This document shows, one piece after another, positions 11,101-28,700 of a DNA stretch of 64,000 bases. Origin of the DNA: a virus; the IMG/VR virus record IMGVR_UViG_3300028394_000038. The stretch is one strand, 5' to 3'. Positions within the stretch are counted from its first letter, which is position 1; each line of letters begins with the position of its first letter. The position numbers and the translations under genes were made by a program. Below the pieces are notes generated by a model, which was not told the DNA's origin, searched no databases, and saw only the letters and a list, made by a program, of their open reading frames with translations.

Positions 11101-14100
11101 GTTGCAATAGATCCAGCATTAGGTCTCATACAAACAAAATTAGACAATGCTAAAGATCGTATTGCTGATAACGTAGTTGCGTTTACTAGCAAATATAAAC
11201 CAAATGGCAAGAAGATTGTTGTACAAGTTGCGGCCGGTAACTATGTTGAAGACAATCCAGTTATCATTCCAGACAATACAAGCGTACTAGGCGCAAGTCT
11301 TCGTGCCTGTGACATTCGTCCGTTAAATGCTAACCAAGACATGTTCCGTTTACGTAACGGTGCATACTTTGGTGAGTTTACTTTCCGAGATGCAGTTGAT
11401 GCGAGTGGCGTGCCAACATTCACTTTTGACTACGCTACTTCGTTTGATGATGCTACTGACATTTACACTAGTCGTCTTGGTTATACTAATATGCCTATTA
11501 GTAAACCTATTATTACTGTATCTCCATATATTCAAAACGTTTCCATCTTAAGTTTCTTAGGTGGTAACGGCGCAAAGGTTGACGGTAACCTAGTTGAAAC
11601 TCCTAACATTCCGTTGATTAGAGAAACTGCTGAATTCCCATTAAGTGGTCCAGCACCTGAACAAGGTAAGTCATTTGTTGCTAACGCATTTACCACATTG
11701 AGCTTTGGCGGTACTGGCTGGCGTATTATTAACGATGCCTATGCTCAGATTGTGTCATGCTTCCAGATTTTCATGTTGAACGGTTCGTATGCTCAGTCAG
11801 GCGGATATCTATCTGTTACTAACTCTGCTACTAACTTTGGTATCTATGCGCTTCGTGCATCTGGTTACAGCCCAAATGCATTTGCCTTTGACAAAGGTTA
11901 TATTGCATCAACTGGAACTAGCAACAGTAAACAGACTCTTACTACTCTAGGATTTGGTCGTGCGCCAACACAAGATTATGTTTTAAGATTTAGAAGCCCC
12001 GACTATAAGGTTGCCTATGACTTATTGTTAGCCAGCAAACTTGCAATACAGAACGCAACTATAACTTGGATTAATTTAACATATCCAAGTTTAACATATA
12101 ACAATGCAACTTGTTTTAGAGACGTTGGCCTGATCATCGATGCTGTTGCTTATGATACCTTCACTGGTGGTAACAGCAAGAGCGTAGAAGCCGCTACAAG
12201 TTACTATAAAGGCTCTACATCTAGTCAAATAGTTATAACTGGACAACTAACTGAAACTATTGCGGCAATTAATTATGCTAGAAGTCTAGCGTTGACTGCT
12301 GTTTCTAATAGCGGACTAGGCACATATGTTGGTAGTAAGTTTGATATTATTACCAACGGCCTTGCAGACCCAGCGGGAGTTCCTGTATCAGTTGGCTACG
12401 GTAATATTGGTGATATTACCAACAACTACAAACCGGCGGCAGTTAGTGTATCATTTGATGCGGCAGTTAATATAAATCCCGCCCTTGACACTATTACCAT
12501 TAACGCACACGGATTCACAAACGGTCAAGCAATTGTTTATCACGCAAATGACAATCCAGAAATTCCAGGATTAAACAACGAGCAAACTTACTATGTCAGT
12601 TATGTTGACCTTGATACCATTCGATTGACATTTGACGAAGGCGGAACTGTTTCTGTAGACATTAGAGCCACAGGTGTTGGTACACATTTCTTCTTTAAAA
12701 ATATTCAAGAGTTCTTTGTTGATGAAATACTTGAAAGTCATAACACCTATCAAGAACTAACTCTACAAGCTGGCTCATATAACTTTGTGCCAGGTAGTGA
12801 AATTACTGGCGTAACTGGCACTTCTAGTAACAATGCATTTGTGTATAGTTATGATCCAGTTAGCTATAAACTAGTTGTTAGTCTAAACAAAGTTACTGTT
12901 GGTGCAAGTATTATTCGAAATGCCTTTGCGGCCAACAGTACTATTAATTCAGATAACGGTGCACCTGCTACAACAAATATTGTAGTAAGTGATGTACTTG
13001 CTATCAATACATTATACTCTGCTAGATTTAGCGTACAGGGCACAACTGGAAACGGTCTACTAACTAACCTAGGTAATCTTCCAAATAAACAAATTTGGCT
13101 ACATCGTCCAAGTATTGTTAACAGTTCTGGACACACTTGGGAATATGCTGGATCGGGTGTTGACTACAATGCCCTACCACAAAACGGTGGACAAAGTATT
13201 TTCAAATATGAACAGTACAGTGATTTGCCAGGTCGAGTTTACTCTTCAGGTACTAACGAACTAGGTGACTTTAAAGTTGGTGACTTCATTAAGGCTGAAA
13301 ACAAAACTGGTAATGTTAGCTTTACCAACAAGGTATCAGTTGCACAGTTAGATGCACTACGTCTAGCGGTGGGTAATATTGTTATTGACTTTATCAGTGA
13401 TGACGTTGACCTAGGTGATAATGAACCAGGTGGCGCAAGTAACAGTCGTCTAACAACACAGTTAGCCATTCGTACATTCTTATCAAACAGACTAGGCGGA
13501 TTCATTGACAAGGCTGTAAGTACCAATGCTGTACCGGGTGCGGTTATTCAGTTGAATAGCTCAGGTCAGATTAATCCAGACTTGTTGCCTGCGGTCCGTG
13601 CCTTCAACTCAGCTAAGAGCAAGGGCTTCTATAGCAGACTAAGTCTAGTTGAAGAAGTACCTGCCTACGATTTCCTAAACGGTGACATTGTAACTGAAGA
13701 ATATGCCACAGTACAGTTGACATTAAGTGCGGCAATTTCAGCACCTGTTGGTTCACTAGTTGTTCAAGCAACTACAGGCGCCAGTGGTTACCTAATTGGC
13801 GATGTACTTGCTGAAACAGTTATCACAGTTGCCAGTGTGGGCGCATCTTTTAGTGCGGCATTTAATACTGTAGATAATTTAACAGTAGCCGGTGATGCTA
13901 CACCTTCTACAGGCAACGGAGTCGTAAAGCCAAACTTGGTAGGTACTGTGGCTAGTAACGTGCCTGCAAACTTTGTATTGTCAAATGCCAATGAAGGGCA
14001 ATATTTAAATCTACGTGCAGATCAAAGTTACAGCTTTACCAACGGCACAATTGTTACCAGTGCTAATGATAACGTACAAGGTACTGTTACATCTACAAGA

Positions 14101-17100
14101 TTTGGAGTATTAGATACTGTAGACAACGGAAGCATTACTCCAGGAACATTGTATACTCCACTATCTGGATCAGTTACTTACTCTTACGTTGCACTAACTA
14201 ATATTTCAGGAAGTGGTACTGGTGGTATTGCAGATATTACTGTAACCAATGGTGCTGTTAGCAGTGTTGACTTACGTAGAGGCGGTACCGGTTATGCTGT
14301 AGGAGATGTTCTATCAGCGGCTAGCGGTACCATTGGCGGAACAGGTAGTGGCTTCAGAATCCCAGTAACTGGTATCGAACAGCGTGTATACCTTAGCTTG
14401 CTAGGTGGTGAAAGATTTACAGCTACACTAGCAAGTCCAAACTTTATTGCTGATAATAATGCTCCAGTAAAAGCAATAACTGCTACCGGTACATCTACAA
14501 AAACATTTAGTGCTAATTCAATTGGTGGTAATGTAAACTATGTTACCAGTCGAATCACTATTACCGGCCACACATATGCAGACGGCGATCCAGTAAAATA
14601 TGTCAGCAGTCCAAACACTGCTATTGATCCGTTGGTCAATGCCGAAGTCTATTATGTAAATGTTTATGATGCTAATACCATTGAGCTGTACGAAGACTAT
14701 GCGTTGATACAAAAAGTTGTATTTACAAGTTCAAGTACTGGTAATCATACTCTAACAATCTTTAATGCCAACGTAATTGATAACTCATTCTATTATGCGG
14801 CACATGGATTAACTACAGGTGACCCATTAAGACTAACAGGATCAAGTTTACCATTAGTCGGCGGCTCTGCTATTGTTACTGGTACATTCTATTTTGCCGG
14901 TTCAATAACTGCAAACTCATTTACTATCCATGCATCAAGAAGTGAAGCATTAGCAAGTATTAACGGTCTTGTAACTAATAAAATTGTGTTCACTACTACA
15001 GGTAGTGGTACACTGACATTTACCAAACAGAACGTACAGGTATTTGGAACTGTAAACACTAGTTCTACAAACAAAGACAACTGGAGCTCATTGAGTGCTA
15101 CCACTATTGATGCTTCAAGCATTACCGGTGGCGTTATCTCAACAAGTCGTTTAGCAGGTACTGGTAGTGCTAATGATACTACATTTCTACGTGGTGATAG
15201 TTCATGGCGCACAGCAGTTCAAAGTATTAGAGAAGTCAACACACCGTTGACATTTACTGGTTCTTATAATACCGTTGGTAGTAACAATTATTACTATGGC
15301 GATGTACAATTAGACATTGAAAAGGTTGACAGCAACAGTGGAGACGACAACTACACTAATCTAGGTGTTGCTAAATTCCGTAAGACACAATTTGCTGTTG
15401 GAACTAGTGTTGCGGCCGGCGAAGTTTATATTAAAGACGGCGTAGTTGATGCAGGTACCTTAGACAGTTTAGACAGCGCATACTTTTTAAATCCTGCTAA
15501 CCTAACTAGTAACGTGCCTGTTACACGTGGCGGAACTAATATTAGTTCGTATGCTGTGGGTGATTTATTGTATGCTAGTGCTACTAGTATTTTAAGTAAG
15601 GTAGCGATTGGGCCAGCTAATACCATATTAACCAGTGACGGCACTAAGCCTGCTTGGAGATCTAGTCTAACAGTTGACGGTGCATTGACTGTTGGCAGTC
15701 CGGCAGAACAAGCTCTTATTGTTACAACAGGCGGAGCTAACATTGGCGGCAACTTGTGGGTTGGTAAAAATGGGTACATAACAGGCGATTTGAATGTTAC
15801 TGGTAATGTAAACATTAAAGGTTCAATACTAACTATTAATTCAACTACAGTTAACGTTGACGATAAGAATATTGAATTAGGCAGTGTATCTACACTATCA
15901 GATTTATCGGGTACTATTAGTGGAAACATAGTAGCAGGATTAATAGACACGTCCGGATTAACTAGCGGAATGAGATTAGTTAAAACTACTGGTGCCGGGG
16001 CATTTGGTGGTATTACTGTTATCAATACTATTGTTAACCCGACAACAATTACTGTAACCCCAACAACTGCAAACACAGATGGTACTATCACGTTTGATGT
16101 ATTAACCGCAACTAATGCCACAGCAGACGGTGGCGGCATTACACTAAAAGGTACAACTGACAAAACATTCAATTGGGTCAACTCAACTAGCGCATGGACC
16201 TCAAGTGAGCACATGAACCTTGCCGCTGGTAAAGAATATCGAATTGGTGGTATAACTGTACTAACAAGTGCAAGAGTATTAGGCAAGCTACCAGGCGGAA
16301 CTACTACTGGTGACTTGGTTGATATTGACAGCACACAAACATTAACTAATAAAACCCTAACTAATCCTATAATTAGTGGAACAACTACCAGCATTACTAA
16401 CATTGGCACATTAGCAATAAGAGATGCCAGTGCGGCTTTTGATGTAACACTTGCGGCCAACAGCTCAACTGCGCTAACAGCAGGTCGTACATTAACCCTT
16501 GACATGGTCAATGCGGCAAGAACTATTAAGCTAGGCGGCAATTTAACTCTAGCCAATAACTTTACAACTGTTGGCAATGCTATAACATTAACAGTAAGTG
16601 GTGCAACTAACGTTACAGTACCAACTACAGGTACATTGGCTACCTTAGACGGTACAGAAACATTTACTAACAAGACACTAACAAGTCCAGTGATTGGTAC
16701 TATTGTTAATACAGGTACATTGACACTGCCAACAACTACAGATACTATTGTTGGTCGTGCTACTACTGATACACTATCTAACAAGACCTTGACATTACCT
16801 AAGATTAATGACACAAGTTCAGACCATACATATAATTTTGCAGTCAGCGAGTTAACGGCTAATAGAACTATAACCTTGCCACTATTAACAGGTAATGATA
16901 CGTTTGCGTTTATTGGTCAAACTCAGACATTTACTAACAAAACATTTACTGATGCTAGTACTTACTTCCAAGACGAAGCTGATAATCTTAAAAAATTACA
17001 GTTTCAACTAAGCGGAATTACTAGCGGAGTTACTCGTACATTAACTATTAATGATGTTAGCGGAACTATTGTAACAACAGGCGACACTGGTTCTATTACC

Positions 17101-18798
17101 AGCACCATGATTGCCAATGACACTATTGTTAATGCTGATATTAACTCGGCGGCTGCTATTGCCTATAGCAAACTAAGTTTGGGTAATAGTATTGTTAATG
17201 CAGATGTAAGTAGCACAGCGGCAATTGCCTATAGCAAATTAAGTTTAGGTAATAGTATTGTCAATGCTGATGTAAGTACTAGTGCGGCGATTGCTTATAG
17301 CAAACTAAACTTATCAGCAAGTATTGTTAATGCTGACATTAGTGCAAGTGCGGCGATTGCAACAAGTAAAATTGCTGGCTTGGCTGCTTCAGCAACTACT
17401 GACACAACTAATGCAAGTAACATTACAAGTGGGTCATTACCAAACGCACGTTTAACTTACAGTAGTATTACTATTGGTACTACTCCAATTAGCTTAGGAT
17501 CGTCAAGTACAACACTAGCCGGATTGACTAGTGTAACATCAACAACTTTTGTCGGAGCATTAAGTGGTAATGCTACTACAGCAACCAACGGAGTCGTTAC
17601 TACAGGTAGTTATAGTGACCCAAGTTGGTTAACAATTAGTAAGAGTAAAGTTGGTTTAGGTAACGTTGATAATACTGCTGATGCAAACAAATCAGTTAAC
17701 TATGCTACTAGCGCAGGTAGTGCCTCAGCAAATGACGTATATCCTTGGGCCAAGTCTTCTACTAAGCCAAGCTATACTAAATCAGAAGTTGGGTTAGGAA
17801 ATGTTGACAATACCGCCGACGCTAATAAATCAGTGAGTAATGCAACTACGGCTGGTGGTTTAGCAGTTGCTACTGGTCGAAATAATAGTGCTAATCAAAT
17901 TGTTCGCACTGATGCTAATGGTTATTTACAAACAGGCTACATCAACTCTAGCAACGGTGACGAAGGCAACAACAGTAGCCCAAGTAGAGTCTGGGGTACA
18001 AATGGTAGTGATAGTTATTTACGAACATACTTAACTAGTGCGTTAAGTGTTAGTTATGCGGCAACAGCAGGTAGTGTAAGTGGTACTGTAGCTAATGCAA
18101 CTAACGCAACTAATGCAACTAACGCGACTAATGCAACCTATGCACGTTATGTTTATGATAACGGTGCCTACAGCGGCGGTGCCGCTTATAGAGAACCATC
18201 TGGTATGTACGTTGTTTATGCGGCATCGGCAGGCAGTGCACCGGCTAGTGACGTTTACTCTTGGGCTAAACAACCTAATCCGCCTGCGGCAGGTACTGCA
18301 ACTTATGTGGGAGCCAGCGGATATACTGCGGTGTCAGGAGTTGTTACTATAGCAGGCAGTGGCGATACTAGTGTTACACAAAGTGGTAATACAATTACTA
18401 TTAGCTCCAATACCACTGCGGTATATGCGGCTGACTTAGCTGAGAATTATCAAGCTGATGCGGTCTATGAGCCTGGAACTGTACTAATGTTTGGTGGAGA
18501 GTTTGAAGTAACTGTAGCCGATGAAGATACTATTCGAGTCGCTGGTATTGTTTCCACAGACCCAGCTTACCTAATGAACATTGGGTTAGAGGGCGATAAG
18601 GTAGTTGCTCTAGCATTGACTGGTCGAGTGCCATGTAAGGTTAAGGGCAAAATACGCAAGGGCGATATGCTAGTTTCAGCTGGTGGCGGATATGCCCGTG
18701 CTACTGATAACCCAAGATTAGGTGCAATTATTGGTAAAGCTCTAGAAAACTTTGACGGTGATGAGGGTGTTATCGAAGTAGTTGTAGGAAGAATTTAA
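8113..18798 (+). CDS. giant virion/tail-fibre protein 1 (3561 aa): beta-helix core, five CxRD helical repeats, fibre repeats, C-terminal chaperone-like domain
   Basis: T/S/G/N/V-rich. Pectin-lyase-like motifs (GDDNNDG..P..T..RA, VAAGNYVEDNP, SPYIQN), TLTNKT repeats, two VGLGNVDNT motifs, C-terminal ADLAENY...GRVPCKV...GAIIGK. Confidence 0.85.
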   Translation: MSVISADAFRRIVLVDNLGTTQPVLRADDRNDVLTIRAGTGISIQKDEGDVNAGFTIYNTGEPGPTSIDDILEIPTIGERPQPAGVSWKPMELGKLTVQDYLPDNLTKTTKMFYTGHGVQAPTNSSLSLTVAGTGTVIVDGTSALRLPVGDIASRPGTTIGTVQAGQIRFNSEIPRFEGYDGRGWNTLGGVSSIDGGTTIAPDPTLPILNFNANGYLVATMSSLNTKIFSPGLVIPTGTTAERPPAIVGQIRFNTQNTQFEGYNGSGWSSLGGVRDIDGNTYIVPELGPGTNENTLYFVTNANLALTLDGSRLSLQNGRSLMFREGIASGNQTATIAPPTNITSSYTLKLPTSLGSAGSVLGVDGSGQLEFVNADSSAGSKINVSELFGDDNNDGFSRPVRTLKRALQIASGYVYSPTFIYEEEVCRRDAGLIIDSLGWDLVTGSNWRSLKSGLTYFNATALPVITTQRPQTIQAVSFLKRKVLDLVTSEPTVTTTLTSLSNEIIDILTNGVGAANAVSMPALAGTPSGVENAKNLLLSNANFLVAETIAWINYQAANNIAPFDKSISYDETKCRRDTGLILDAVGFDLALGTNYNAVTTGLAYQRYSYTTLPSQKTVTLSAIQFAKTNTLALAGVSADGTATTRAGAAFNEIIDIITNGIVQTATAADALIFPTPTGASSNKTNAKDQLIANKDFLKAEVIAWLNLNYPSVGFDPALCSRDMGYIIDALCYDVLYGGDSASIQVAQTYFTGSGAQVLPLFQRAATVAAFNRLSEIAQQVIIKDEVVPTAGNTVSQDIINPAGTTTESNIVFTLISYITSSIASNTTAGLPSVTYPSVTWSDAGLQTAKSAIASARSTIINDTIININASNPFTYDSAKCARDTAFIVNSVAYDLIYGGNSQSRDAGLKYYSNVTGLTLIGSQNAQTAAAIERLRAVSIQVAQNISIVKTSGNAQNQVSGSAGSSGAAAIISARLSEIISVVSAGTSYAPTLVDPTVAIDPALGLIQTKLDNAKDRIADNVVAFTSKYKPNGKKIVVQVAAGNYVEDNPVIIPDNTSVLGASLRACDIRPLNANQDMFRLRNGAYFGEFTFRDAVDASGVPTFTFDYATSFDDATDIYTSRLGYTNMPISKPIITVSPYIQNVSILSFLGGNGAKVDGNLVETPNIPLIRETAEFPLSGPAPEQGKSFVANAFTTLSFGGTGWRIINDAYAQIVSCFQIFMLNGSYAQSGGYLSVTNSATNFGIYALRASGYSPNAFAFDKGYIASTGTSNSKQTLTTLGFGRAPTQDYVLRFRSPDYKVAYDLLLASKLAIQNATITWINLTYPSLTYNNATCFRDVGLIIDAVAYDTFTGGNSKSVEAATSYYKGSTSSQIVITGQLTETIAAINYARSLALTAVSNSGLGTYVGSKFDIITNGLADPAGVPVSVGYGNIGDITNNYKPAAVSVSFDAAVNINPALDTITINAHGFTNGQAIVYHANDNPEIPGLNNEQTYYVSYVDLDTIRLTFDEGGTVSVDIRATGVGTHFFFKNIQEFFVDEILESHNTYQELTLQAGSYNFVPGSEITGVTGTSSNNAFVYSYDPVSYKLVVSLNKVTVGASIIRNAFAANSTINSDNGAPATTNIVVSDVLAINTLYSARFSVQGTTGNGLLTNLGNLPNKQIWLHRPSIVNSSGHTWEYAGSGVDYNALPQNGGQSIFKYEQYSDLPGRVYSSGTNELGDFKVGDFIKAENKTGNVSFTNKVSVAQLDALRLAVGNIVIDFISDDVDLGDNEPGGASNSRLTTQLAIRTFLSNRLGGFIDKAVSTNAVPGAVIQLNSSGQINPDLLPAVRAFNSAKSKGFYSRLSLVEEVPAYDFLNGDIVTEEYATVQLTLSAAISAPVGSLVVQATTGASGYLIGDVLAETVITVASVGASFSAAFNTVDNLTVAGDATPSTGNGVVKPNLVGTVASNVPANFVLSNANEGQYLNLRADQSYSFTNGTIVTSANDNVQGTVTSTRFGVLDTVDNGSITPGTLYTPLSGSVTYSYVALTNISGSGTGGIADITVTNGAVSSVDLRRGGTGYAVGDVLSAASGTIGGTGSGFRIPVTGIEQRVYLSLLGGERFTATLASPNFIADNNAPVKAITATGTSTKTFSANSIGGNVNYVTSRITITGHTYADGDPVKYVSSPNTAIDPLVNAEVYYVNVYDANTIELYEDYALIQKVVFTSSSTGNHTLTIFNANVIDNSFYYAAHGLTTGDPLRLTGSSLPLVGGSAIVTGTFYFAGSITANSFTIHASRSEALASINGLVTNKIVFTTTGSGTLTFTKQNVQVFGTVNTSSTNKDNWSSLSATTIDASSITGGVISTSRLAGTGSANDTTFLRGDSSWRTAVQSIREVNTPLTFTGSYNTVGSNNYYYGDVQLDIEKVDSNSGDDNYTNLGVAKFRKTQFAVGTSVAAGEVYIKDGVVDAGTLDSLDSAYFLNPANLTSNVPVTRGGTNISSYAVGDLLYASATSILSKVAIGPANTILTSDGTKPAWRSSLTVDGALTVGSPAEQALIVTTGGANIGGNLWVGKNGYITGDLNVTGNVNIKGSILTINSTTVNVDDKNIELGSVSTLSDLSGTISGNIVAGLIDTSGLTSGMRLVKTTGAGAFGGITVINTIVNPTTITVTPTTANTDGTITFDVLTATNATADGGGITLKGTTDKTFNWVNSTSAWTSSEHMNLAAGKEYRIGGITVLTSARVLGKLPGGTTTGDLVDIDSTQTLTNKTLTNPIISGTTTSITNIGTLAIRDASAAFDVTLAANSSTALTAGRTLTLDMVNAARTIKLGGNLTLANNFTTVGNAITLTVSGATNVTVPTTGTLATLDGTETFTNKTLTSPVIGTIVNTGTLTLPTTTDTIVGRATTDTLSNKTLTLPKINDTSSDHTYNFAVSELTANRTITLPLLTGNDTFAFIGQTQTFTNKTFTDASTYFQDEADNLKKLQFQLSGITSGVTRTLTINDVSGTIVTTGDTGSITSTMIANDTIVNADINSAAAIAYSKLSLGNSIVNADVSSTAAIAYSKLSLGNSIVNADVSTSAAIAYSKLNLSASIVNADISASAAIATSKIAGLAASATTDTTNASNITSGSLPNARLTYSSITIGTTPISLGSSSTTLAGLTSVTSTTFVGALSGNATTATNGVVTTGSYSDPSWLTISKSKVGLGNVDNTADANKSVNYATSAGSASANDVYPWAKSSTKPSYTKSEVGLGNVDNTADANKSVSNATTAGGLAVATGRNNSANQIVRTDANGYLQTGYINSSNGDEGNNSSPSRVWGTNGSDSYLRTYLTSALSVSYAATAGSVSGTVANATNATNATNATNATYARYVYDNGAYSGGAAYREPSGMYVVYAASAGSAPASDVYSWAKQPNPPAAGTATYVGASGYTAVSGVVTIAGSGDTSVTQSGNTITISSNTTAVYAADLAENYQADAVYEPGTVLMFGGEFEVTVADEDTIRVAGIVSTDPAYLMNIGLEGDKVVALALTGRVPCKVKGKIRKGDMLVSAGGGYARATDNPRLGAIIGKALENFDGDEGVIEVVVGRI
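17125..17373 (+). repeat. intragenic 66-nt (22-aa) tandem repeat, 4 copies: IVNADxxxxAAIAYSKLSLGNS
   Basis: Copies start at 17125, 17191, 17257 and 17323. Confidence 0.9.
18094..18138 (+). repeat. 9-nt (NAT) tandem repeat, 5 copies
   Basis: aatgcaact aacgcaact aatgcaact aacgcgact aatgcaacc. Confidence 0.85.
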
Positions 18799-18826: not shown

Positions 18827-20350
18827 ATGAGCCAATTGCTTTCCATTGTTGATGATAAAATTGTTATTGAAAAACTAAGTCTAAAATATCTAGACGGCAA
18901 CACCACGCACGTAGGAACATTAGATATTAAGGGTGGCTTAAAAGTTGTTCAAAGCGTATCATTTGACACTGATCTTAGAGTACGTGGTACTTTAAATGTT
19001 GATACTATTAATGTTAAAAATCTTAATAGAGGTGATGCTAGTCAACTTGATGCATTTACTTTTTCAGCAGACATAGAGTCAGGATTAGACGGGCGTGGCG
19101 TAGTTTGGGGAGTGGGTGATACTTCTTATCAATTAGTGTTTAAATCACAGCCTCGCAGAATCTATTCAAGCGAATCGTTTGATATTAGTAAAAATTCTAC
19201 ATATCAAATTGACGGCGTTAATGTACTACTAAAAGACAGTTTAGGCAGTTCAATCAAACACTCAAAACTAACTGAACTTGGTACACTTACAGGATTAGAA
19301 GTAGATGGCAATGCTAATTTGGGCAACACAGTAATTGTAAACAGTTACCTAAATCGTGTTGGTATTAATACTGAAATCCCAAATGCCGCATTTAGCGTTA
19401 TGGAAAACGGCATTGAGATCGTTGTTGGTACAGAAGACAACCGTGCTGTTATTGGAACTTGGGGCAATCAAGCATTAGATATTATTACTGATAATACTTC
19501 TAGGATTAGTATACAAGGTAATACAGTAACCTTTGGTAACGAGTCTAGTAAAAATGCACAAGTTAAAATTAATGGAACACTAACTGTTGATAGTATTGTT
19601 AGCGATCTACGAGTTGAAAGAATTGCTCCAATTGAATTCTTGGAAGATAACAACAGCGGAGTTTACGGCAAAGGTTTAATTTGGAAAGCTAAGGGAGTAA
19701 GTTCTAGACAATTCTTTTTAATGCCAAACCCAGATAGATTTTATAGTACAGAGTCTATTGATCTTGCTAGCGGAAACTATTTTAGTATTGGTAAGAATTT
19801 AGTTATTAGCGAAACAGCCGTCGGTGAAGGTGTTAAAAACAGTAGTCTAGAAACACTAGGTACTTTATCTGGGTTAACAGTAGGCGGCAATGTCAATCTA
19901 AGTGACGCATTAAAAGTTATTGACTCAGCGGCAATTGCCAACAGATTGTTTACAGTAGCTTCAGGTGATGTAACTCTTAAATTAACTGCTGATAGTATCA
20001 GTGCTAGCGATAGCATTAGAGTATTTGTAAAAGACACACAAGAACTATCAGTTACTGATACTGGTATTACCGTTGGTAATAAAAATAATACTGCTAGAAC
20101 TATTAACGCATATGGCAAACTAGCAGTAAACATTACTCATCCAGATCCAGATGCGGCATTTAGCGTGGACGGGCCGGTGGTTATGAATGGCAAAAAGTTT
20201 GTAACCGCAGACGCAATGCCCACATCGGGCGAATGGAACGTCGGTGACATTGCCTGGAACTCTACACCGCAAACATCTAGCTATATTGGTTGGGTTTGTG
20301 TTATCAGCGGCAATCCGGGCGTTTGGAAACCTTTTGGACAAATTGCCTAA
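18827..20350 (+). CDS. virion structural/fibre-associated protein with internal duplication
   Basis: Two copies of G.G..W...Q.....P.R.YS.ES.D...S.L..LGTL.GL.V.G. C-terminal PTSGEWNVGDIAWN...GWVC...PGVWKPFG module. Late box upstream. Confidence 0.75.
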   Translation: MSQLLSIVDDKIVIEKLSLKYLDGNTTHVGTLDIKGGLKVVQSVSFDTDLRVRGTLNVDTINVKNLNRGDASQLDAFTFSADIESGLDGRGVVWGVGDTSYQLVFKSQPRRIYSSESFDISKNSTYQIDGVNVLLKDSLGSSIKHSKLTELGTLTGLEVDGNANLGNTVIVNSYLNRVGINTEIPNAAFSVMENGIEIVVGTEDNRAVIGTWGNQALDIITDNTSRISIQGNTVTFGNESSKNAQVKINGTLTVDSIVSDLRVERIAPIEFLEDNNSGVYGKGLIWKAKGVSSRQFFLMPNPDRFYSTESIDLASGNYFSIGKNLVISETAVGEGVKNSSLETLGTLSGLTVGGNVNLSDALKVIDSAAIANRLFTVASGDVTLKLTADSISASDSIRVFVKDTQELSVTDTGITVGNKNNTARTINAYGKLAVNITHPDPDAAFSVDGPVVMNGKKFVTADAMPTSGEWNVGDIAWNSTPQTSSYIGWVCVISGNPGVWKPFGQIA

Positions 20351-20359
20351 CCACAATCG

Positions 20360-20387
20360 TTGACTTTGTCTAATAAGAGTGTATAAT
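20360..20387 (+). promoter_or_regulatory. sigma70 promoter of queD
   Basis: TTGACT (20360-20365), 16-bp spacer, TATAAT (20382-20387). Confidence 0.7.
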
Positions 20388-20403
20388 TATTAGACACACA
20401 CAA

Positions 20404-20448
20404 AGAGGACTCTATGGCATCATCCCTCTATAAACACTCTGCAGTCAT
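20404..20448 (+). ncRNA. candidate preQ1-I-like riboswitch aptamer in the queD leader
   Basis: P1 stem AGAGG (20404-20408)/CCTCT (20425-20429), C immediately 5' of the 3' strand, then ATAAAC. Possible pseudoknot ATGGC (20414-20418)/GTCAT (20444-20448). Sits upstream of queD. Confidence 0.5.
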
Positions 20449-20480
20449 CAAACTTGCTACCTTAATAAAGGAGACTAGAG

Positions 20481-20996
20481 ATGGCAAAATTTTATTCAAC
20501 AAAAACTTACGGCAACGATAGGGGTCTATCATGCTGTTTCAGACAGTGGAGAGCGACCCATAGTCACTGCTCAACACTTCACGGATACTCAATCGGTATT
20601 AAACTAATATTTGAATGCGACACACTAGATGACAAAAACTGGTGTATGGACTTTGGCGGTCTTAAAGAATTCAAAGCATGGGCAGATCATATGTTTGATC
20701 ACACTTTGGTGATTGCTATTGATGATCCTATGATGCCTTTTTTCAAACAAATGGCCGCACAAGTCAACATGAGCTCTGAAGATCCTTCTAGCATTATTCC
20801 TCACAAACGTGGTGCTATTTGCGATATTAGAGTAGTAGATGGCGTAGGCTGTGAAATGTTTGCCAAAATGGCGTATGACAAAATGGCTGAACTTTTGGCT
20901 AGTGGCGATATGCGTTACCCAATTAACCCGACAGTAAGAGTTAAATCAGTTGAAGTATTTGAACACGGTGCTAACTCAGCTACATACGAAGGTTAA
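20481..20996 (+). CDS. queD: 6-carboxy-5,6,7,8-tetrahydropterin synthase (QueD/PTPS family)
   Basis: HCSTLHGYS, MDFGGLK, FDHT, terminal EVFEHGANSATY. AAGGAG RBS. Confidence 0.88.
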   Translation: MAKFYSTKTYGNDRGLSCCFRQWRATHSHCSTLHGYSIGIKLIFECDTLDDKNWCMDFGGLKEFKAWADHMFDHTLVIAIDDPMMPFFKQMAAQVNMSSEDPSSIIPHKRGAICDIRVVDGVGCEMFAKMAYDKMAELLASGDMRYPINPTVRVKSVEVFEHGANSATYEG

Positions 20997-21008
20997 TAAT
21001 CTTTGGAC

Positions 21009-21037
21009 TTGACCTAAATAGGCGTACATGCTATAAT
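21009..21037 (+). promoter_or_regulatory. sigma70 promoter with extended -10
   Basis: TTGACC (21009-21014), 17-bp spacer ending in TGC, TATAAT (21032-21037). The spacer also contains TAAATA. Confidence 0.75.
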
Positions 21038-21068
21038 GCTGTATGTCTATTTTTTTTGATTGGTAACT

Positions 21069-22097
21069 ATGATTAAGCGTATTGGATTTGCTTGTAAGTG
21101 GATTGATGGTCCTAGCCAAATTAATGGCATTAAACAAACGGATACAGCTAAACAATACAACACAGGTACCACAACAGTAGCATGGCTTAAACGCCAAACA
21201 CGTGACGTAGCAGAACAAAAACTATGGGACTTAATGGTAAGTAACATACAAGCTACACAAAAACTCGTAGATCGAGTAGGAGAGTTAAATGAAAATCTTA
21301 GGATGGTTCGTCTTAGTAGTGATATTCTTCCTGTATACACTCAACCCGACTTTAGCTACTTCTGGCGAAGAGCCGATGTTATTGACTATCTCGAGCGCAA
21401 TTTTATCCTTGTTGGCAATAGTGCTCGCGCAAGCAATACCCGTCTTTCTATGCATCCTGGTCAGTTTACTGTTCTTGCTAGCGTTGATCCGGGCATTGTT
21501 CAACGATCGATAGAGGAATTTGAATATCATGCTGATATGGCAAAATGGATGGGTTTTGGCCGCTCCTTTCAGGACTTTAAGATCAACGTCCACATATCGG
21601 GTAGAGCCGGTCCCGAAGGTATTAGAAATGCCTACAAAAGACTTACCCCCGAAGCCCGGAATTGTATTACAATTGAAAACGAAGAAAACTCATGGGGGTT
21701 AGATGATTGCACTAGTCTTGGAGACATATTGCCTATTGTGCTTGATATACATCATCACTGGATTCGCGAAGGCGAGTATTTACTCCCCACCGATGATCGT
21801 GTTAGCAAGGTGCTTGATAGTTGGCGTGGCCTCCGCCCTACTATGCATTATAGCCTTAGTCGTGAAGATGTTATTATGGGGCATTCAACTACCAGTAGGC
21901 CAGACATGGCAACACTACTACTAGAAGGCTACAAAAAGCAAAAACTCAGAGCGCACTCTAACTTTTACTGGAATATTCCGGCAAATGAATGGGCTTTGAG
22001 CTTCTGGGATCGCTTTGATATCATGTGTGAATCTAAAGCGAAAAACCTAGCAAGTGCTAGGCTATTCGAACAAGCTGAAGAACTAGGTCTTATTTAG
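21069..22097 (+). CDS. uvsE: UV DNA damage endonuclease (UvsE/UvdE family)
   Basis: RIGFACK, RLSSD, RLSMHPGQF, IENEE, LDIHHH, RAHS and MCESKAKNLA motifs. Confidence 0.93.
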   Translation: MIKRIGFACKWIDGPSQINGIKQTDTAKQYNTGTTTVAWLKRQTRDVAEQKLWDLMVSNIQATQKLVDRVGELNENLRMVRLSSDILPVYTQPDFSYFWRRADVIDYLERNFILVGNSARASNTRLSMHPGQFTVLASVDPGIVQRSIEEFEYHADMAKWMGFGRSFQDFKINVHISGRAGPEGIRNAYKRLTPEARNCITIENEENSWGLDDCTSLGDILPIVLDIHHHWIREGEYLLPTDDRVSKVLDSWRGLRPTMHYSLSREDVIMGHSTTSRPDMATLLLEGYKKQKLRAHSNFYWNIPANEWALSFWDRFDIMCESKAKNLASARLFEQAEELGLI

Positions 22098-22682: not shown

Positions 22683-22710
22683 TCATATACAAGACTTATT
22701 GGAGCATTCA

Positions 22711-25700
22711 ATGGCACGTAAAATAGTAGACATCGGCGTAGAAGGTAATGACGGAACTGGTGATAGTATCCGCGAAGGTTTTAGAAAAACCAACGAAAAC
22801 TTTAAAGAAATATACGCTGTATTTGGGCAAGAAGGTACATTAGCATTTTTAAACTTAGGCGATGTAGAAGCCGGACAGCTTAAGAATTATTCTGCCATAG
22901 CTAATCAATTCCCTGTTGTTAACAATCAAGGGTCTGGAATTAAGTTCAAGCCCTTAGTAGGTGCTGCCGGTTTAACTATTACGTATCCAGATGATCCTGC
23001 CGATCCCAACTATAACAAAATTGTTCTAACACAGCAACGAGCTGTAGCAGAATTAGGCTCTGCCGATGCGGCTGGTAAATTTGGCAATTCTGTTGATGGA
23101 CAAGGATTTGTCTTTGGAAATATTGCAGATCCTACACAAGCTAATGTATTAAATTGGAATACTGCTTTTGATCGTCACGGTCAAACTGTTATTGGGGCTG
23201 AAAAGTTTCCGGTTCCGTTAGGATTTGCAGACAATAGGTACATTAATAAAGGTACAATACCGGGCGAAGTTGCTGATGCAATGGTAGGTTATCTTTCTGT
23301 TCCAGCAGGCGCAACGGGTGATCAAGTGCCGCAGGCCGCTGAAACTGTTCTAAAAGCCGGCGCTACAATGACCGGTAAACTATTCCTAAGTGATCATCCG
23401 GGTGATCTAGCAGGCGCAGGTAATCCAATTGGACTCGATGATAAGCAAGCGGCTACCAAATATTATGTAGATACAACTGCATATTCAAGTAAAGTTAATT
23501 TGTATGTTAGTACCAGCGGCGATGACTCACAACGCAAAACTCCAGTGGGGAAAGAAGGCCGAGCATTTGCTTATGCCTATGCTAGTCTAGTTGCGGCTTG
23601 TTTAAAAGCTGAACAGCTTATTGACGAAAGTCCATGGGAAACTGGCCCATATCGTCAGTTAATTGCTTACGGTGGAGCAAAATACTATTCAGAAATTACG
23701 CCAGGCGGTATTATTATTGGTGGCGGGTTAAACGGAACTACCCGTATTAAATTCACTAACGACAGCGGTAGCCCAGTTGATCAAGGTATTGCAAACAATA
23801 GAGATATTATTCCAGGCAAACTAGTAGTTGGTCGTAATAGCGGAGCAAGAGGTTTTATTGTAAAATATGGAACAATTGATAATACTGACTATGTTGACCT
23901 ACGAGATGTAACTGGATCATTCTCAGTTGGTGAAAACTTATTCTTTGACCAAGCTGTTAAGCGTTTAGAAATTTCTATCTTTATTGAGTCAGGTAATTAT
24001 TATGAAGATTATCCAATTCGTATTCCGCGTAACTGTTCTATTCTAGGTGATGAATTTAGACGTACAGTTATCCGCCCTGCGGATCGAATAAGTAAAAGCC
24101 CATGGGCTGGTACTTGGTTCTATCGTGATCTAGAATTTGATAACCTAGCTATTGCAGAAACAAATTGGGGATATCATTATCTATCAGACCCAACTAACAA
24201 GGCATCAACTCCAAAAAATAACAAAGACTTAGACGTATTCTTATGTAATGATGCTACTATTATTCGTCAGATCAGTTGTCAAGGTCACGGTGGATTCATG
24301 ATGGTGCTTGACCCTAACGGTCAAATTTTAACCAAGTCACCTTACTGTCAACAGTCAGGTTGCTTCTCCGGGTCATTAAACAAACAAGCATTCCGCGGTG
24401 GTCAATATGTTGACGGGCAAGCAGGAAGTATGCCTGTAACTTCAGTTAGTACTAATTCAGATAAAACTGAAATTACAGTTACTGATGCATTCCGTATACC
24501 GCAAACTCCTACTGCATTCTTTGTTAAAGGTAAACGCTATAAGATTGATACATTTACTGATAACGGTTTAGGATATCGAGGTGCTAGAGAATTACTAATA
24601 GCAAACAAAGAATTTATTGTTGCAGAAACTATTGCCTATATCAATGATGTCATTACTCCAACTTTTACATATGATGCTGTTAAATTTAGTCAAGCTGTAG
24701 GAAATATTATCAATGCAGTTGCATGGGACGTAGTATTTGATAGTAATATTCAATCTATTTTAATAGCCGAAGAATATTATGTAAGAACCAAATACACAAC
24801 GTTCCCTTCAGAAAAAACACAAACACTAGCCGCTCTTAATTATGTAAAAGATTCTCTAGTAGCACTACTATCAACTAATGCAACAGCGGCAGCCCGTGCT
24901 AGTGCAAAAATGGATATAATATTACAAATCCTTACTAGCGGTGTCAATGACCGTAATATTTTAGATGCAAGCTCATGGACTTATCTTGGCACCACTATTA
25001 CTGTAACAAAATCTGGTGGTCATGGATTGGGTGCAGGCTGGTCAGTTAAAATTGTAGATGCTACTGCAACAACCAATGCCCCTAACGGTATATTTAATGT
25101 TGCATCTATTGTTGATGCTAATACATTTACATATACTGTTACTAATGCTCCGACTGGTACTGCTGGTGGTAACATTAGATTTACCAGCTCACCAATTCCA
25201 ATTAGATCAATTCCTAACCCGCCTGTAGATCCACAGGCATTGCCTGCTACTACATTAGGCATTCAAAATAGTCTTGCATTATTAATTGCTAATAGAGAAT
25301 TAATTAAAGCTGAATACATTGCCTACATTCAAACTTATTATTCCGATTTCTTATTTGGAACTATCGGGGTTGCTGGTTATATTAGAGATGCTGACAGAAT
25401 CGTCAACGCAGTAATATATGATTCTATTTACGGTGGCACTAGTCAAAGTGTGTTAGTGTCTAACAACTTCTTTGATGCTGAAGGCAAATCAACAATATCC
25501 ACTGAAGTTACACAAATATATAATGCATTAGAATGGATTAGAGATGTTGCCAAACAAGTAGTCACTAATACAGAAATTACCGGTTTGTTACAAGTATCTA
25601 TTAGACAAGCTAGAGGAACTGCAGGTACTTTAGAAATTGCTACACTTGTAGAAGATAATTTTAATTCTGTTGTTACTGCTATTAGATTTGGTGCTGACAC

Positions 25701-28700
25701 ACTGCCTGCTGTGTCATATCCAAGTATTGAAAATGTTGTTACAAGTTTACAATCAGCAAAGAGTTTATTAGATATAAATTCAAATAATATTCGTTCAAAT
25801 ACTATTTCGTTTATTAATAACAAATATTTGTACGATGTGGCAGCGGCACAACGAGATATTAGATTCCTAGTAGATGATCTAGCGCACGATATTGTCTACA
25901 CTGGCGATTTAAAAATGGTAGAGCACGGTCTAGGATACTTTGTTGGAGATGCTAAACTTGTTAGTGACCCTGAACGCCCAAGAACACTGGCTATTCTTGA
26001 TTACATAAAACAATTAGCATTGGCTATTGTTGACAACGTTTCTATTCCAAACCCACAGTTGACCAAGGTCGGAAGTTTAATCATTGGACAAACTTACAAA
26101 ATTAATACTGCCGGATCAACTATTTGGACCGCATTGGGTTCTGCAGATAATTTACACAATACAGTCTTTACTGCAACTGCCACCGGTACAGTAAATGCCA
26201 CTCAGATTACTGTTGGTCGTACTTATACTATTGTATCAAGAGGAAGTCCAACTAATTTAACTAATTACATCAGTATTGGTTCTTCAAGTAATGCTGTAGG
26301 AACTTCATTTATTGCCAATGCTGTAGGAACTGGTACCGGCACTGTTGTACAAGGAACAGGAGATGCTAGACTTGCTAGTGGCAGTGATTTCTATAGAAGA
26401 CAATTTGGTATTAGTCAAACAATACAATTAATTTCAAGCGGTGCTGGTCCTTCTACTATTGTACCGAGTTTAACATGGGTTAATACTAACCTAGTAAATG
26501 CTTTCCAAAAATTGCAAGACACTAAAGAAGTTATTCAATCAGCAGTCATTACTTGGATCAATAACAATATAGCATCAAACGTTACTAATCCAAATAGCAT
26601 ATGGTACGGCTTCGCTTACAATAGCGGAACTTGCAGTCGAGATGTAGGATTAGTTGTTGATGCCGTCGGTTACGATATGATGTTTAACAGTAACTTCCGT
26701 AGTAGTAAAGCTGGTATGGCTTATTACAGGGGAGTTGCTAGTGCCGCTATAGTAAGAGACAATCAATTGTCTGCAACAATAGCGTCATTTGCTTATCTAA
26801 AAAATTATCTATTGTCAACTATTACATCTGCTGCCTATGGTAATACGGCTAATACTAGAGTTGGCGATAAGATGGATGTTGTTATATCAATTCTTACCGA
26901 CGGCCTTAGTGCAGTTCCTGCATTTGTATTACCGGATCCAACAGGTTTTGATATCGACTATAGTAATGCTAGAAGACTAATTAGCGATAATAAAGCGTTC
27001 ATTGTTGATGAAATTACATCATGGATTGCCGCACAAATAGTTGGAAACATTACGCCGTTCACTACACAGTTCCAATACAACTCAGCAAAGTGTGCTCAGG
27101 ACGTTGGATACATTATTGATGCTATTCGTTATGATTTAACATATGGCGGAAATTTAGAAACTCTTGTTGCGGCCAATGCATACTTTGTTGGTGCTGACAC
27201 AACATTAGGTACAGACCAAAAAGATAAAACTATTGCCGCATATGCTCGCTTAAAAGAAATTATTGGCAAGGTAGCACAAGCTGTCCAAGTATTAGATAAG
27301 AATACAGCTCTTATACAAACTACCGCAGTAAGCGGTGGTGGTGCAAGTACATCAGTAGCATTTGCTCAAGCTCGTGTTCAAGATATTATTAAACAAATTA
27401 ATATTACAGCCGTTGATAGTAAACCTCAATTAGAATATTTGATTGGCACTACTAGAACAATGGTTGCTAATACTAAACCAACGGGGTATGTATCTGCTAA
27501 AAACTTATTAGTAGCTAACCGTGCATTTATTCAAGCTGAAGTGTTTAACTACTTAAAGAATACTTACACCTTTACTATTACACAATCAACTAACAATCAA
27601 TTTGTAACAGCTAGTACTGCTAAAATGAGAGTTGGCATGCCGGTTAAGTTTCTTGGTACTGACCCGTTTCAACAAACAATTTTATCAGCATCAACTCCGC
27701 TACTAGTAGACGGCAAGTATGTAGTTACTTTTGAATTTGTAAGACAAAGAGTTAGACCAGATTCAACAAAAGAATACGAGGTTCAAGGCAATGCTAATGG
27801 CCTATACAATTTAATTGTACCAGTTGCTGTTGTACCTGATCAATCAACTACTGATACTACAACTACTAGTATTACAGTAGTATATCCGTTTAATCCAGGT
27901 GTGTTCGATTATGCTAATCAAACAACTATTCGTGTGTCAGGCGGAACATTTGGTGGCGTAAACCGCGATGCCAAATACTATGTTAAACAAGTTGTTAGCG
28001 GAACTAATTTTACAATATCAGAAACAATTAGTGGCGGAACTCCTGGATCACTATTTTCAGTAGATAGTGATACCGGAACAATGTATTGCTCGTTTGCATT
28101 TGATGAAGCTACCTGCAGAAGAGATACTGGATTCTTAGTTAGCAATATTTCTACTGATATATTATACGGTGGAAGATATAATACTATTAAGTCTGGTAAG
28201 AGATACTTAGTTGCAAGTTCTGTATTAGTTGTAACAGAACAAAGTGTTGAGTGTCGAGCCGGTATTAGTTACATTGACACGCTAGCACAACGTATTATTA
28301 ACAATCAAGCACCGTTGGTAAATTATCAAACTTTGAATAATGTTAACCCTAACGATTTTGTTGCTCAAGTTTTTGATACTAATGCTACTGGTGGTAGTGC
28401 CGCTGGCGCCACAATTAATGGGCTAGTCGGGTTAGTAAACGATATTATTTTAAACGGAAAATTATGGGCTGACAGTATTAGTAATATTCCAGATGCTGTA
28501 GTATATCCAAAATATGTTTTACAATTAAATCAAGATACTCCATATAATACATATTTGTCTGGACCATTGCCAGACGAACTAGTTCTACAAGCGGCAGGTA
28601 ATACAAGTATGTTGTCTAATGACTGGACACAGTTAAACGACTTAGCCTATGGTCTAGTTGCTACAAATAACGGATTGATTGAAACAGTATCAGTGTTTAC

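Follow-up and report, generated by a model that had tools for sequence, protein, structure and literature searches.

A queD-like gene of a lake phage is preceded by a short leader that folds into a small RNA pseudoknot, and we have hardly any doubt that this pseudoknot is a conserved, functional cis-regulatory element. We think it probable that this element is a riboswitch which senses a ligand and thereby switches translation ON, and that it represents an undescribed, essentially phage-restricted class with the architecture of preQ1-I. The whole stretch of DNA analysed, referred to below as the window, is a viral contig of 64,000 nucleotides (IMG/VR record IMGVR_UViG_3300028394_000038). The H-type pseudoknot occupies positions 20404–20448, with a near-consensus sigma-70 promoter immediately upstream and the queD-like start codon 32 nt downstream. 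A preliminary description of the window had drawn attention to this leader as a candidate preQ1-I-like riboswitch. The observation holds in that the leader contains a real, conserved and covarying cis-acting RNA; the preQ1-I-like anatomy and the translational platform also stand, whereas membership of the preQ1-I family (RF00522) and the switch helix that had been suggested, CTCTA with TAGAG, do not.

The queD-like gene and its promoter

The leader lies in a 130-nt gap between a tail-fibre-like ORF (18827–20350) and an ORF of 171 aa. Two features define the locus:

20360–20387, + strand: sigma-70-type promoter, with −35 TTGACT (20360–20365), a 16-nt spacer and −10 TATAAT (20382–20387); 11 of 12 positions match the consensus
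20481–20996, + strand: QueD-like gene of the PTPS family, 171 aa (PF01242, PHROG 2389), in which C-x3-H-G-Y replaces C-x3-H-G-H

QueD is the first committed enzyme of 7-deazaguanine synthesis. The window protein scores 56.8 bits against the Pfam PTPS family PF01242, for which the cut-off is 22.4, and matches PHROG 2389, ‘QueD-like 6-pyruvoyl-tetrahydropterin synthase’, with an E-value of 2.8e-34. Against the NCBIfam QueD equivalog TIGR03367 it reaches 37.3 bits, under the cut-off of 89.25, and when translated and aligned its motif reads C-S-T-L-H-G-Y rather than the canonical C-x3-H-G-H. QueD-like counterparts in cultured phages share 43–47% identity with the protein; one of these phages is Pseudomonas phage Iggy, in whose record QueC-like, GTP cyclohydrolase and DpdA genes are annotated as neighbours of queD. 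Several cultured-phage records with the same QueD subfamily likewise annotate QueC-like, QueE-like, GTP cyclohydrolase or DpdA genes next to it.

The leader elements listed in the preliminary description (the sigma-70 promoter, AGAGG and CCTCT, C20424, and the AUAAA tail, here ATAAAC from 20430) are all present at the positions given there; the promoter spacer was corrected to 16 nt. From the position of the promoter, transcription of the window leader would start near 20394–20396. Neither the leader nor the gap contains an intrinsic terminator, which fits control at the level of translation. A TATAAT-like box with at least five of six matches is present in 131 of 231 related leaders and ends a median of 8 nt before the first helix (P1), so the aptamer, about 45 nt in size, starts at or near the 5' end of the mRNA. 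Other related leaders carry a T4-late-like TATAAATA in place of this box.

Distribution and gene association

A protein-guided scan of IMG/VR returned 373 relatives of the QueD-like protein, and the conserved leader was found in 75 of the best 80 loci. Gene-independent pattern scans added many more loci. All pooled counts are given as lower bounds: at least 316 loci with at least 221 unique aptamers, almost all of them on uncultured viral contigs. The first ORF downstream of the motif is homologous to the window's QueD-like protein at 199 of 204 pooled loci. In the exceptions the motif precedes cupin, methyltransferase or radical-SAM genes, which lie beside the QueD-like gene or a few genes upstream of it. 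Three contigs carry two copies of the motif each; the window has a single copy, as has each of four related large phage contigs, where it stands upstream of queD in every case, folE and queE lacking it. The motif-bearing phages differ widely in gene neighbourhood and in promoter type, and queD is the only gene to which the motif is constantly linked.

Among 185,579 bacterial and archaeal species genomes the motif is nearly absent. Six contigs matched, all of them from metagenome-assembled genomes (four Bacteroidota and two labelled ‘Rickettsiales’); the motif precedes a QueD-like ORF in five, and the sixth contig stops just past the start codon. GenBank phages yielded no DNA match to window positions 20000–21200, and three aptamer queries gave only chance matches there. 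Nor did the covariance model find the motif in eight cultured phages with a homologous QueD (BCSR5, HD01, Pan1, Mendera, immuto 3-5A, phi13:1, phiSM and Iggy); in all eight, queD directly adjoins the upstream gene and has no leader.

A conserved pseudoknot with covarying helices

The elements of the pseudoknot in the window, apart from a helix extension treated in the next section, are as follows:

20404–20408, + strand: P1, 5' strand, AGAGG; pairs with 20425–20429
20409–20413, + strand: loop L1, ACUCU; its first three bases follow a conserved N-C-U
20414–20418, + strand: P2a, 5' strand, AUGGC; pairs with 20444–20448
20419–20420, + strand: internal loop, 5' side; A20419 and U20420 lie opposite A20443 and C20442
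20423–20424, + strand: loop L2, made up of U20423 and C20424; the latter is invariant, adjoins the P1 3' strand on its 5' side and is the candidate specificity base
20425–20429, + strand: P1, 3' strand, CCUCU; G20408–C20425 is the top P1 pair
20430–20439, + strand: loop L3, AUAAACAC followed by UC; A-rich, with A at positions 3, 5 and 7
20442–20443, + strand: internal loop, 3' side; C20442 and A20443 face U20420 and A20419

Covariation of P1 among homologous leaders was one of the checks that the preliminary description had called for, and P1 passes it clearly. Between 98% and 99% of cells in the alignment are paired, and four of the five pairs have changed on both sides. P1 occurs in eight perfectly complementary 5-bp forms (AGCGG, AGAGG, AGUGG, UGCGG, ACCGG, AGUCG, AUCGG and AGACG, each with its complement), and the top pair is G-C in all 99 sequences.

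The pseudoknot partners proposed earlier, ATGGC at 20414–20418 and GTCAT at 20444–20448, are confirmed by covariation at every aligned P2a pair, all seven having changed on both sides. Among relatives P2a is 4–7 bp long, and its types include GGCAU/AUGCC, GACGC/GUGUC, GGCG/CGCC, GGAA/UUCC, GACUU/AAGUC and GGUGU/ACACU. Its paired fraction of 68–71% is an underestimate, because both the MAFFT and the covariance-model alignments leave variants with a shorter 5' strand out of register. In a cross-pairing control, P2a strands gave −5.0 kcal/mol with their own partners and −3.3 kcal/mol with foreign ones, a weak separation because most of these helices share a GGC/GCC core. For the structure as a whole, the covariation score was 0.35–0.40 compared with 0.15 after shuffling, and none of 500 shuffles reached the score of the real alignment, although the relatedness of the sequences makes such shuffle statistics overstate independence. 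When the partner columns were slid, the score dropped to 0.04–0.11.

The helix sequences drift freely; a set of unpaired bases around the junction of P1 and P2 does not, and comprises N-C-U in L1, Y-C in L2, and A-N-A-N-A with the following UC in L3. N-C-U opens L1 in 151 of 153 unique aptamers from a set assembled with no filter for it, and the remainder of L1 varies in length. Of 221 unique aptamers, 127 have UC as L2, 56 have AC and 34 have CC, the C never varying. Positions 3, 5 and 7 of L3 are A in all 221, positions that were preset by the search patterns; the same three columns are also invariant in the gene-anchored set, which was collected without a motif pattern. The U·C opposition of the internal loop is found in every instance, both of its bases likewise being preset by the patterns, and the additional A·A mismatch (A20419/A20443) is limited to the subgroup to which the window belongs.

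Extension of P2 towards the junction

Two blocks of invariant bases, UCA at 20420–20422 and UCUGC at 20438–20442, had previously been taken as unpaired. They contain two short strands that could pair with each other:

20421–20422, + strand: P2b, 5' strand, C20421 and A20422; pairs with G20441 and U20440
20440–20441, + strand: P2b, 3' strand, U20440 and G20441, within the conserved UCUGC (20438–20442)

We scanned viral contigs with patterns of equal stringency for the four-way combinations of each pair, and an instance was counted only if it had a perfect P1, an N-C-U start of L1 and the correct spacing. The outcome was as follows:

A20422–U20440 as A-U: at least 110 real, about 110 of 120 matches listed
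A20422–U20440 position as G-C: 88 real among 119 matches listed
A20422–U20440 position as G·U: 0–1, one doubtful instance among 72 matches listed
A20422–U20440 position as A·C: 1 real among 70 matches listed
C20421–G20441 as C-G: more than 200, comprising all instances from the scans for A20422–U20440
C20421–G20441 position as U-A: 6 real among 119 matches listed
C20421–G20441 position as C·A: 0 among 118 matches listed
C20421–G20441 position as U·G: 0 among 119 matches listed

Because compensated forms were recovered and uncompensated ones amounted to 0–1, both P2b pairs vary only in compensated form. This pattern supports the view that P2 continues by 2 bp, C20421–G20441 and A20422–U20440, across the U·C mismatch. 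With P2b in place, L2 is a 2-nt Y-C, and the junction consists of a G-C floor pair, a canonical ceiling pair, the C beside P1 and the A-rich L3.

A competing helix at the ribosome-binding site

The 3' strand of P2a has a second potential partner further downstream, and the elements concerned are:

20444–20449, + strand: switch strand GUCAUC; 20444–20448 form the P2a 3' strand, and 20444–20449 pair alternatively with GAUGGC at 20480–20485 in the minimum-free-energy fold
20453–20479, + strand: inner hairpin of the platform in the minimum-free-energy fold, containing the Shine–Dalgarno (SD) sequence GGAG (20470–20473)
20480–20485, + strand: GAUGGC, 3' partner of the switch strand, containing the start codon (20481–20483)

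The P2a 5' strand AUGGC is the same sequence as AUGGC at 20481–20485 in the start-codon region, and the two compete for one strand (20444–20448). When related leaders were folded freely, the P2 3' strand paired into the region from the SD to the AUG over 3 nt or more in 131 of 151, and in 149 of 151 it shared at least 3 nt with the helix that covers the ribosome-binding site. The helix over the start codon or SD itself covaries, being GCCAUUG/CAAUGGC, AAGUCAUC/GAUGACUU, CCUAUG/CAUAGG (over the SD) or ACUCC/GGAGU, so that at least four different platform sequences retain the same logic of competing helices. The translational expression platform of the preliminary description is thus present, as a competition between the P2 3' strand and an anti-RBS helix and with no terminator; its composition differs from that envisaged. 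The pairing of CTCTA with TAGAG is not conserved and was rejected, since the 3' strand of P1 changes between phages (CCUCU, CCGCU, CCACU, CGACU) while ACUAGAG is fixed, and the competing helix is instead formed by GTCATC (20444–20449) and GATGGC (20480–20485).

The SD and start codon lie 17–42 nt beyond the aptamer among the loci, and the SD is outside P2. Since the start codon or the SD is a second partner of the P2 3' strand, formation of the pseudoknot should free the ribosome-binding site, as in an ON switch. We calculated the consequence of sequestering the aptamer bases for accessibility between the SD and the AUG: the mean unpaired probability rose from 0.44 to 0.62, and in the window from 0.26 to 0.61, by a calculation that forces bases unpaired and cannot model a pseudoknot, so that its direction is partly built in. 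By this measure accessibility increased by more than 0.15 in 99 leaders and decreased by that much in four. We regard the covariation among three strands (the loop strand, the switch strand and the start/SD region) as the stronger argument for an ON switch. The element combines generic features of a riboswitch, namely a covarying aptamer, an alternative-pairing platform in a 5' leader and a consistent gene association.

Relation to catalogued RNA families

The leader pseudoknot belongs to no catalogued RNA family. At the gathering score, cmscan with Rfam 15 gave no match anywhere in the window. Membership of preQ1-I, for which the preliminary description had suggested a search with RF00522, is not borne out: even at E ≤ 10, the preQ1-I, preQ1-II and preQ1-III models did not match window positions 20300–20600 or any of 12 variant loci, and the only matches in those runs were chance ones to models of snoRNAs and viral RNAs. 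No queD-leader pseudoknot element of this kind turned up in full-text searches of the literature, and the glutamine riboswitch in phage Melnitz was the only phage-encoded riboswitch described in the literature searched.

Pathway genes in related phage genomes

We surveyed pathway genes in five related large phage contigs. All five encode FolE, and each has a single PTPS-family gene. ORFs were scanned in two of the genomes, G002 and G004, and both were confirmed to encode a QueE-like radical-SAM protein (phrog_2076); the remaining three gave only sub-threshold matches to the QueE model. G004 also has a folE-queD-queE operon without the motif. Pfam searches of the related genomes for QueC returned only marginal matches of 20–23 bits, none convincing, and there was no match to the tRNA-guanine transglycosylase (TGT) family PF01702.

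One of these genomes, G002, encodes near polB a 510-aa protein with an invariant LGDSGGFQ motif and no sequence match in Pfam, PHROG or PDB. Its alignment-based AlphaFold model (pLDDT 65, pTM 0.72) has tRNA-guanine transglycosylases as all of its top 50 Foldseek matches (best E 1.9e-6); a single-sequence model reached a pLDDT of 30, and the TGT fold appears only in the alignment-based one. On the strength of that model, the protein is predicted to be a TGT-fold enzyme, found in the one genome examined for it. Given the FolE, QueE-like and TGT-fold genes, these phages appear to synthesize a 7-deazaguanine, by a route that possibly stops at, or branches from, CDG, and to rely on a TGT-like enzyme for its insertion.

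Comparison with known leader elements

In preQ1-I riboswitches, UC or AC precedes the 3' strand of P1 and the C pairs with the ligand; a conserved G-C pair forms the floor of the site, L3 adenines line the P1 minor groove and a canonical pair forms the ceiling (PMC11625349). The phage element has much in common with the members of RF00522 (types I–III), for example those from B. subtilis queC, T. tengcongensis and E. coli: a small H-type pseudoknot, a 5-bp P1 with a top G-C pair, an invariant C before the P1 3' strand that is preceded by U or A, an A-rich L3, a canonical P2 pair above the junction, and a position in the leader of a gene of the queuosine/7-deazaguanine pathway. The preQ1-I-like anatomy put forward in the preliminary description is therefore upheld in its 5-bp P1, its invariant C, its A-rich L3 and its pseudoknot partners. 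The differences are also substantial. P2 is 3–4 bp in preQ1-I but long and interrupted in the phage element (2 bp, a U·C mismatch, then 4–7 bp); L3 has an extra invariant UC, with the next UG pairing in P2b; L1 opens with N-C-U instead of UU; and the phage element, unlike preQ1-I, occurs almost only in uncultured phages. The platform differs as well, since that of the phage element implies that ligand turns expression ON, whereas P2 of preQ1-I hides the SD or favours a terminator (OFF), neither of which was seen here. We view the likeness to preQ1-I as one of architecture, rather than a demonstrated homology.

PreQ1-II (RF01054) and preQ1-III (RF02680) are likewise pseudoknotted translational switches tied to queuosine genes, but they have other folds and conserved cores and bury the SD on ligand binding (OFF), and their models do not match. 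Known preQ1 switches are described as turning the gene off in the presence of ligand, and we know of none that acts as an ON switch. The Vibrio vulnificus add adenine riboswitch is a translational ON riboswitch with a similar logic, in which folding of the ligand-stabilized aptamer takes up a strand that, left free, would pair with the SD or start codon; its aptamer is a three-way junction rather than a pseudoknot, and its ligand and gene class are also unrelated. The pseudoknot in the T4 gene 32 leader lacks a ligand pocket and serves as a nucleation site for protein binding. It resembles the phage element in being a 5'-terminal pseudoknot that governs translation from a phage mRNA leader, but it shares no sequence similarity with it and has no competing anti-start helix.

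A model for the switch and its alternatives

The model that we favour is as follows. A small ligand with a guanine-like Watson–Crick face would sit between G20408–C20425 and A20422–U20440 and pair with C20424. Candidate ligands are pathway metabolites such as 7,8-dihydroneopterin triphosphate, CPH4, CDG, preQ0 or preQ1; it is the invariant C together with the gene association that points to a pathway molecule of this shape. Binding would lock the pseudoknot during transcription and hold GUCAU off the start codon, allowing queD to be translated, and in the absence of ligand the more stable helix of GUCAUC with GAUGGC would, together with the inner hairpin, hide the AUG and the SD. Induction by the substrate dihydroneopterin triphosphate, or feed-forward by CDG or preQ0, would both fit the ON logic. 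Because QueD catalyses the first committed step, and given the accompanying FolE, QueE-like and TGT-fold proteins, such a switch would control the flow of precursor into nucleic-acid modification. Some considerations weigh against an ON riboswitch: it would be unusual for a pathway product to turn ON a gene of the pathway that makes it, and the many invariant bases would suit a protein-binding site equally well. Since the Rfam preQ1 models do not match, the analogy to the preQ1-I pocket rests on reasoning and not on homology. The fully specified version of the model, in which a phage-specific class that is a distant structural cousin of preQ1-I senses a 7-deazaguanine or pterin metabolite and turns QueD translation ON, we put at a little under an even chance.

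Together with the position at the 5' end of the mRNA, the invariant unpaired bases would serve a protein site as well as a pocket, and the T4 gene 32 leader provides a textbook precedent for a translational operator. There, the balance between the pseudoknot and the anti-start helix would be shifted, without any small ligand, by an RNA-binding protein of phage or host, which might be QueD itself. We consider such an operator in the queD leader unlikely, as the motif spans phages with differing neighbourhoods and promoters in which queD is its sole constant partner, and no conserved gene for an RNA-binding protein was seen adjoining it; the conserved bases, moreover, cluster where the ligand binds in preQ1-I (PMC11625349). 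The same bases count against an element that works independently of any ligand and sets translation or mRNA stability in a fixed or condition-dependent manner, for example as a folding timer, a sensor of temperature or Mg2+, or a protection of the 5' end. Mutually exclusive helices would suffice to tune translation, and a pseudoknot at the 5' end could protect the mRNA, but neither role needs some 15 invariant unpaired bases, an invariant C beside P1 and alternating invariant adenines that stay constant while the helices around them drift. This explanation we regard as quite unlikely.

More improbable still, in our estimation, is the idea that the ON wiring has been misread and that the element is a genuine, if divergent, preQ1-I riboswitch through which preQ1 or preQ0 represses queD. 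The P1 length, floor pair, specificity C, A-rich L3, H-type topology and link to a queuosine-pathway gene are all shared with preQ1-I. RF00522, however, gave no match at E ≤ 10 in 13 variants, the SD lies beyond the aptamer and outside P2, and the P2 3' strand competes with the anti-RBS helix in 131–149 of 151 leaders, depending on the count used. There is also no convincing QueC in the related genomes examined, so preQ1 may not be the product that these phages make.

Implications for phage biology

Modified bases in phage DNA help to evade restriction. Phage-native riboswitches are, to our knowledge, rare, the known cases being bacterial classes carried by phages. If the leader pseudoknot binds a ligand as the favoured model proposes, phages would have evolved a metabolite sensor of their own that times or meters the synthesis of modified DNA bases, and the smallest known riboswitch fold would be extended to ON regulation. 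A 7-deazaguanine or pterin intermediate for which no RNA receptor is known might also turn out to have a sensor here; the ligand could be a metabolite such as CDG, CPH4 or dihydroneopterin triphosphate, none of which has a known riboswitch as yet. Should the phage-specific class prove to be real, this fold would gain its first ON-type member, and the class would count among the very few riboswitch classes native to viruses.

Genomic setting and transcription of queD

In the window, queD and uvdE form a small island between giant ORFs of 3561 and 4727 aa. Given these flanking genes and the intervening ORF that resembles tail-fibre and virion genes, queD, a metabolic gene driven by an early-type promoter of its own, lies inside a block of structural genes.

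Features surrounding queD in the window
8113-18798: giant ORF, 3561 aa, one flank of the island
18827-20350: ORF between the giant ORFs, with PHROG matches to tail-fibre and virion proteins
20357-20376 and 20387-20406: inverted repeat, 20-nt arms, 80% complementary, 10 nt apart
21009-21037: second near-consensus sigma-70 promoter (TTGACC, 17-nt spacer, TATAAT, with TG)
21060-22097: UvdE-type endonuclease gene
22699-36882: giant ORF, 4727 aa, other flank of the island

Because the second promoter lies immediately 3' of queD and 5' of the UvdE-type gene, queD looks monocistronic in the window. In the queD promoter itself, the inverted repeat (core GTCTAATAA / TTATTAGAC) brackets the -10 box; this palindrome may serve as the operator of a dimeric regulator. 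The -10 box also falls within similar palindromes in other leaders, for example those of loci L009 and L040. In many related leaders (among them L003, L011, L026 and L052) a T4-late-like TATAAATA, located ∼12-15 nt upstream of P1, replaces the sigma-70 promoter; one RNA element therefore serves different promoter classes.

Distribution of the leader element

Some contigs (L048, L094 and L452, the last with two matches) carry two copies of the motif. On two of these, the extra copy lies upstream of the queD copy and precedes another gene:

L048:1343-1396: 5' of a 312-aa radical-SAM gene
L094:4-54: 5' of a class I methyltransferase gene

In the 335-kb related phage genome G004, queD lacks the leader element and belongs to a folE-queD-queE operon (L208, G004:C1:216000-228000). 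Next come genes for a 450-aa protein that belongs to no known family and for an NAD-dependent epimerase.

Within 'bacterial' genomes the motif is confined to short MAG contigs (L201, L203, L204 and L206), assigned to Bacteroidota (Crocinitomicaceae, Chitinophagales and an unnamed Bacteroidetes) and to a marine 'Rickettsiales' MAG. The contigs probably come from phages and were mis-binned, and their taxonomy is possibly a weak clue to the phage hosts.

Associated enzymes

Adjoining polB in the related phage G002 is a gene for a 510-aa protein (L478:6046-7578) that has no sequence match in Pfam, PHROG or PDB. It has >7900 unnamed metagenome homologues, a family in which an LGDSGGFQ motif is invariant, and the top 50 Foldseek matches of its AlphaFold model are all tRNA-guanine transglycosylases. 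The protein probably represents a highly divergent DpdA-like enzyme.

A small phosphoribosyltransferase gene (L048:776-1324; L186:3783-4331; L207:1281-1790) repeatedly adjoins the motif-queD unit or folE, and its recurrence hints at a route from the 7-deazaguanine base to a nucleotide.
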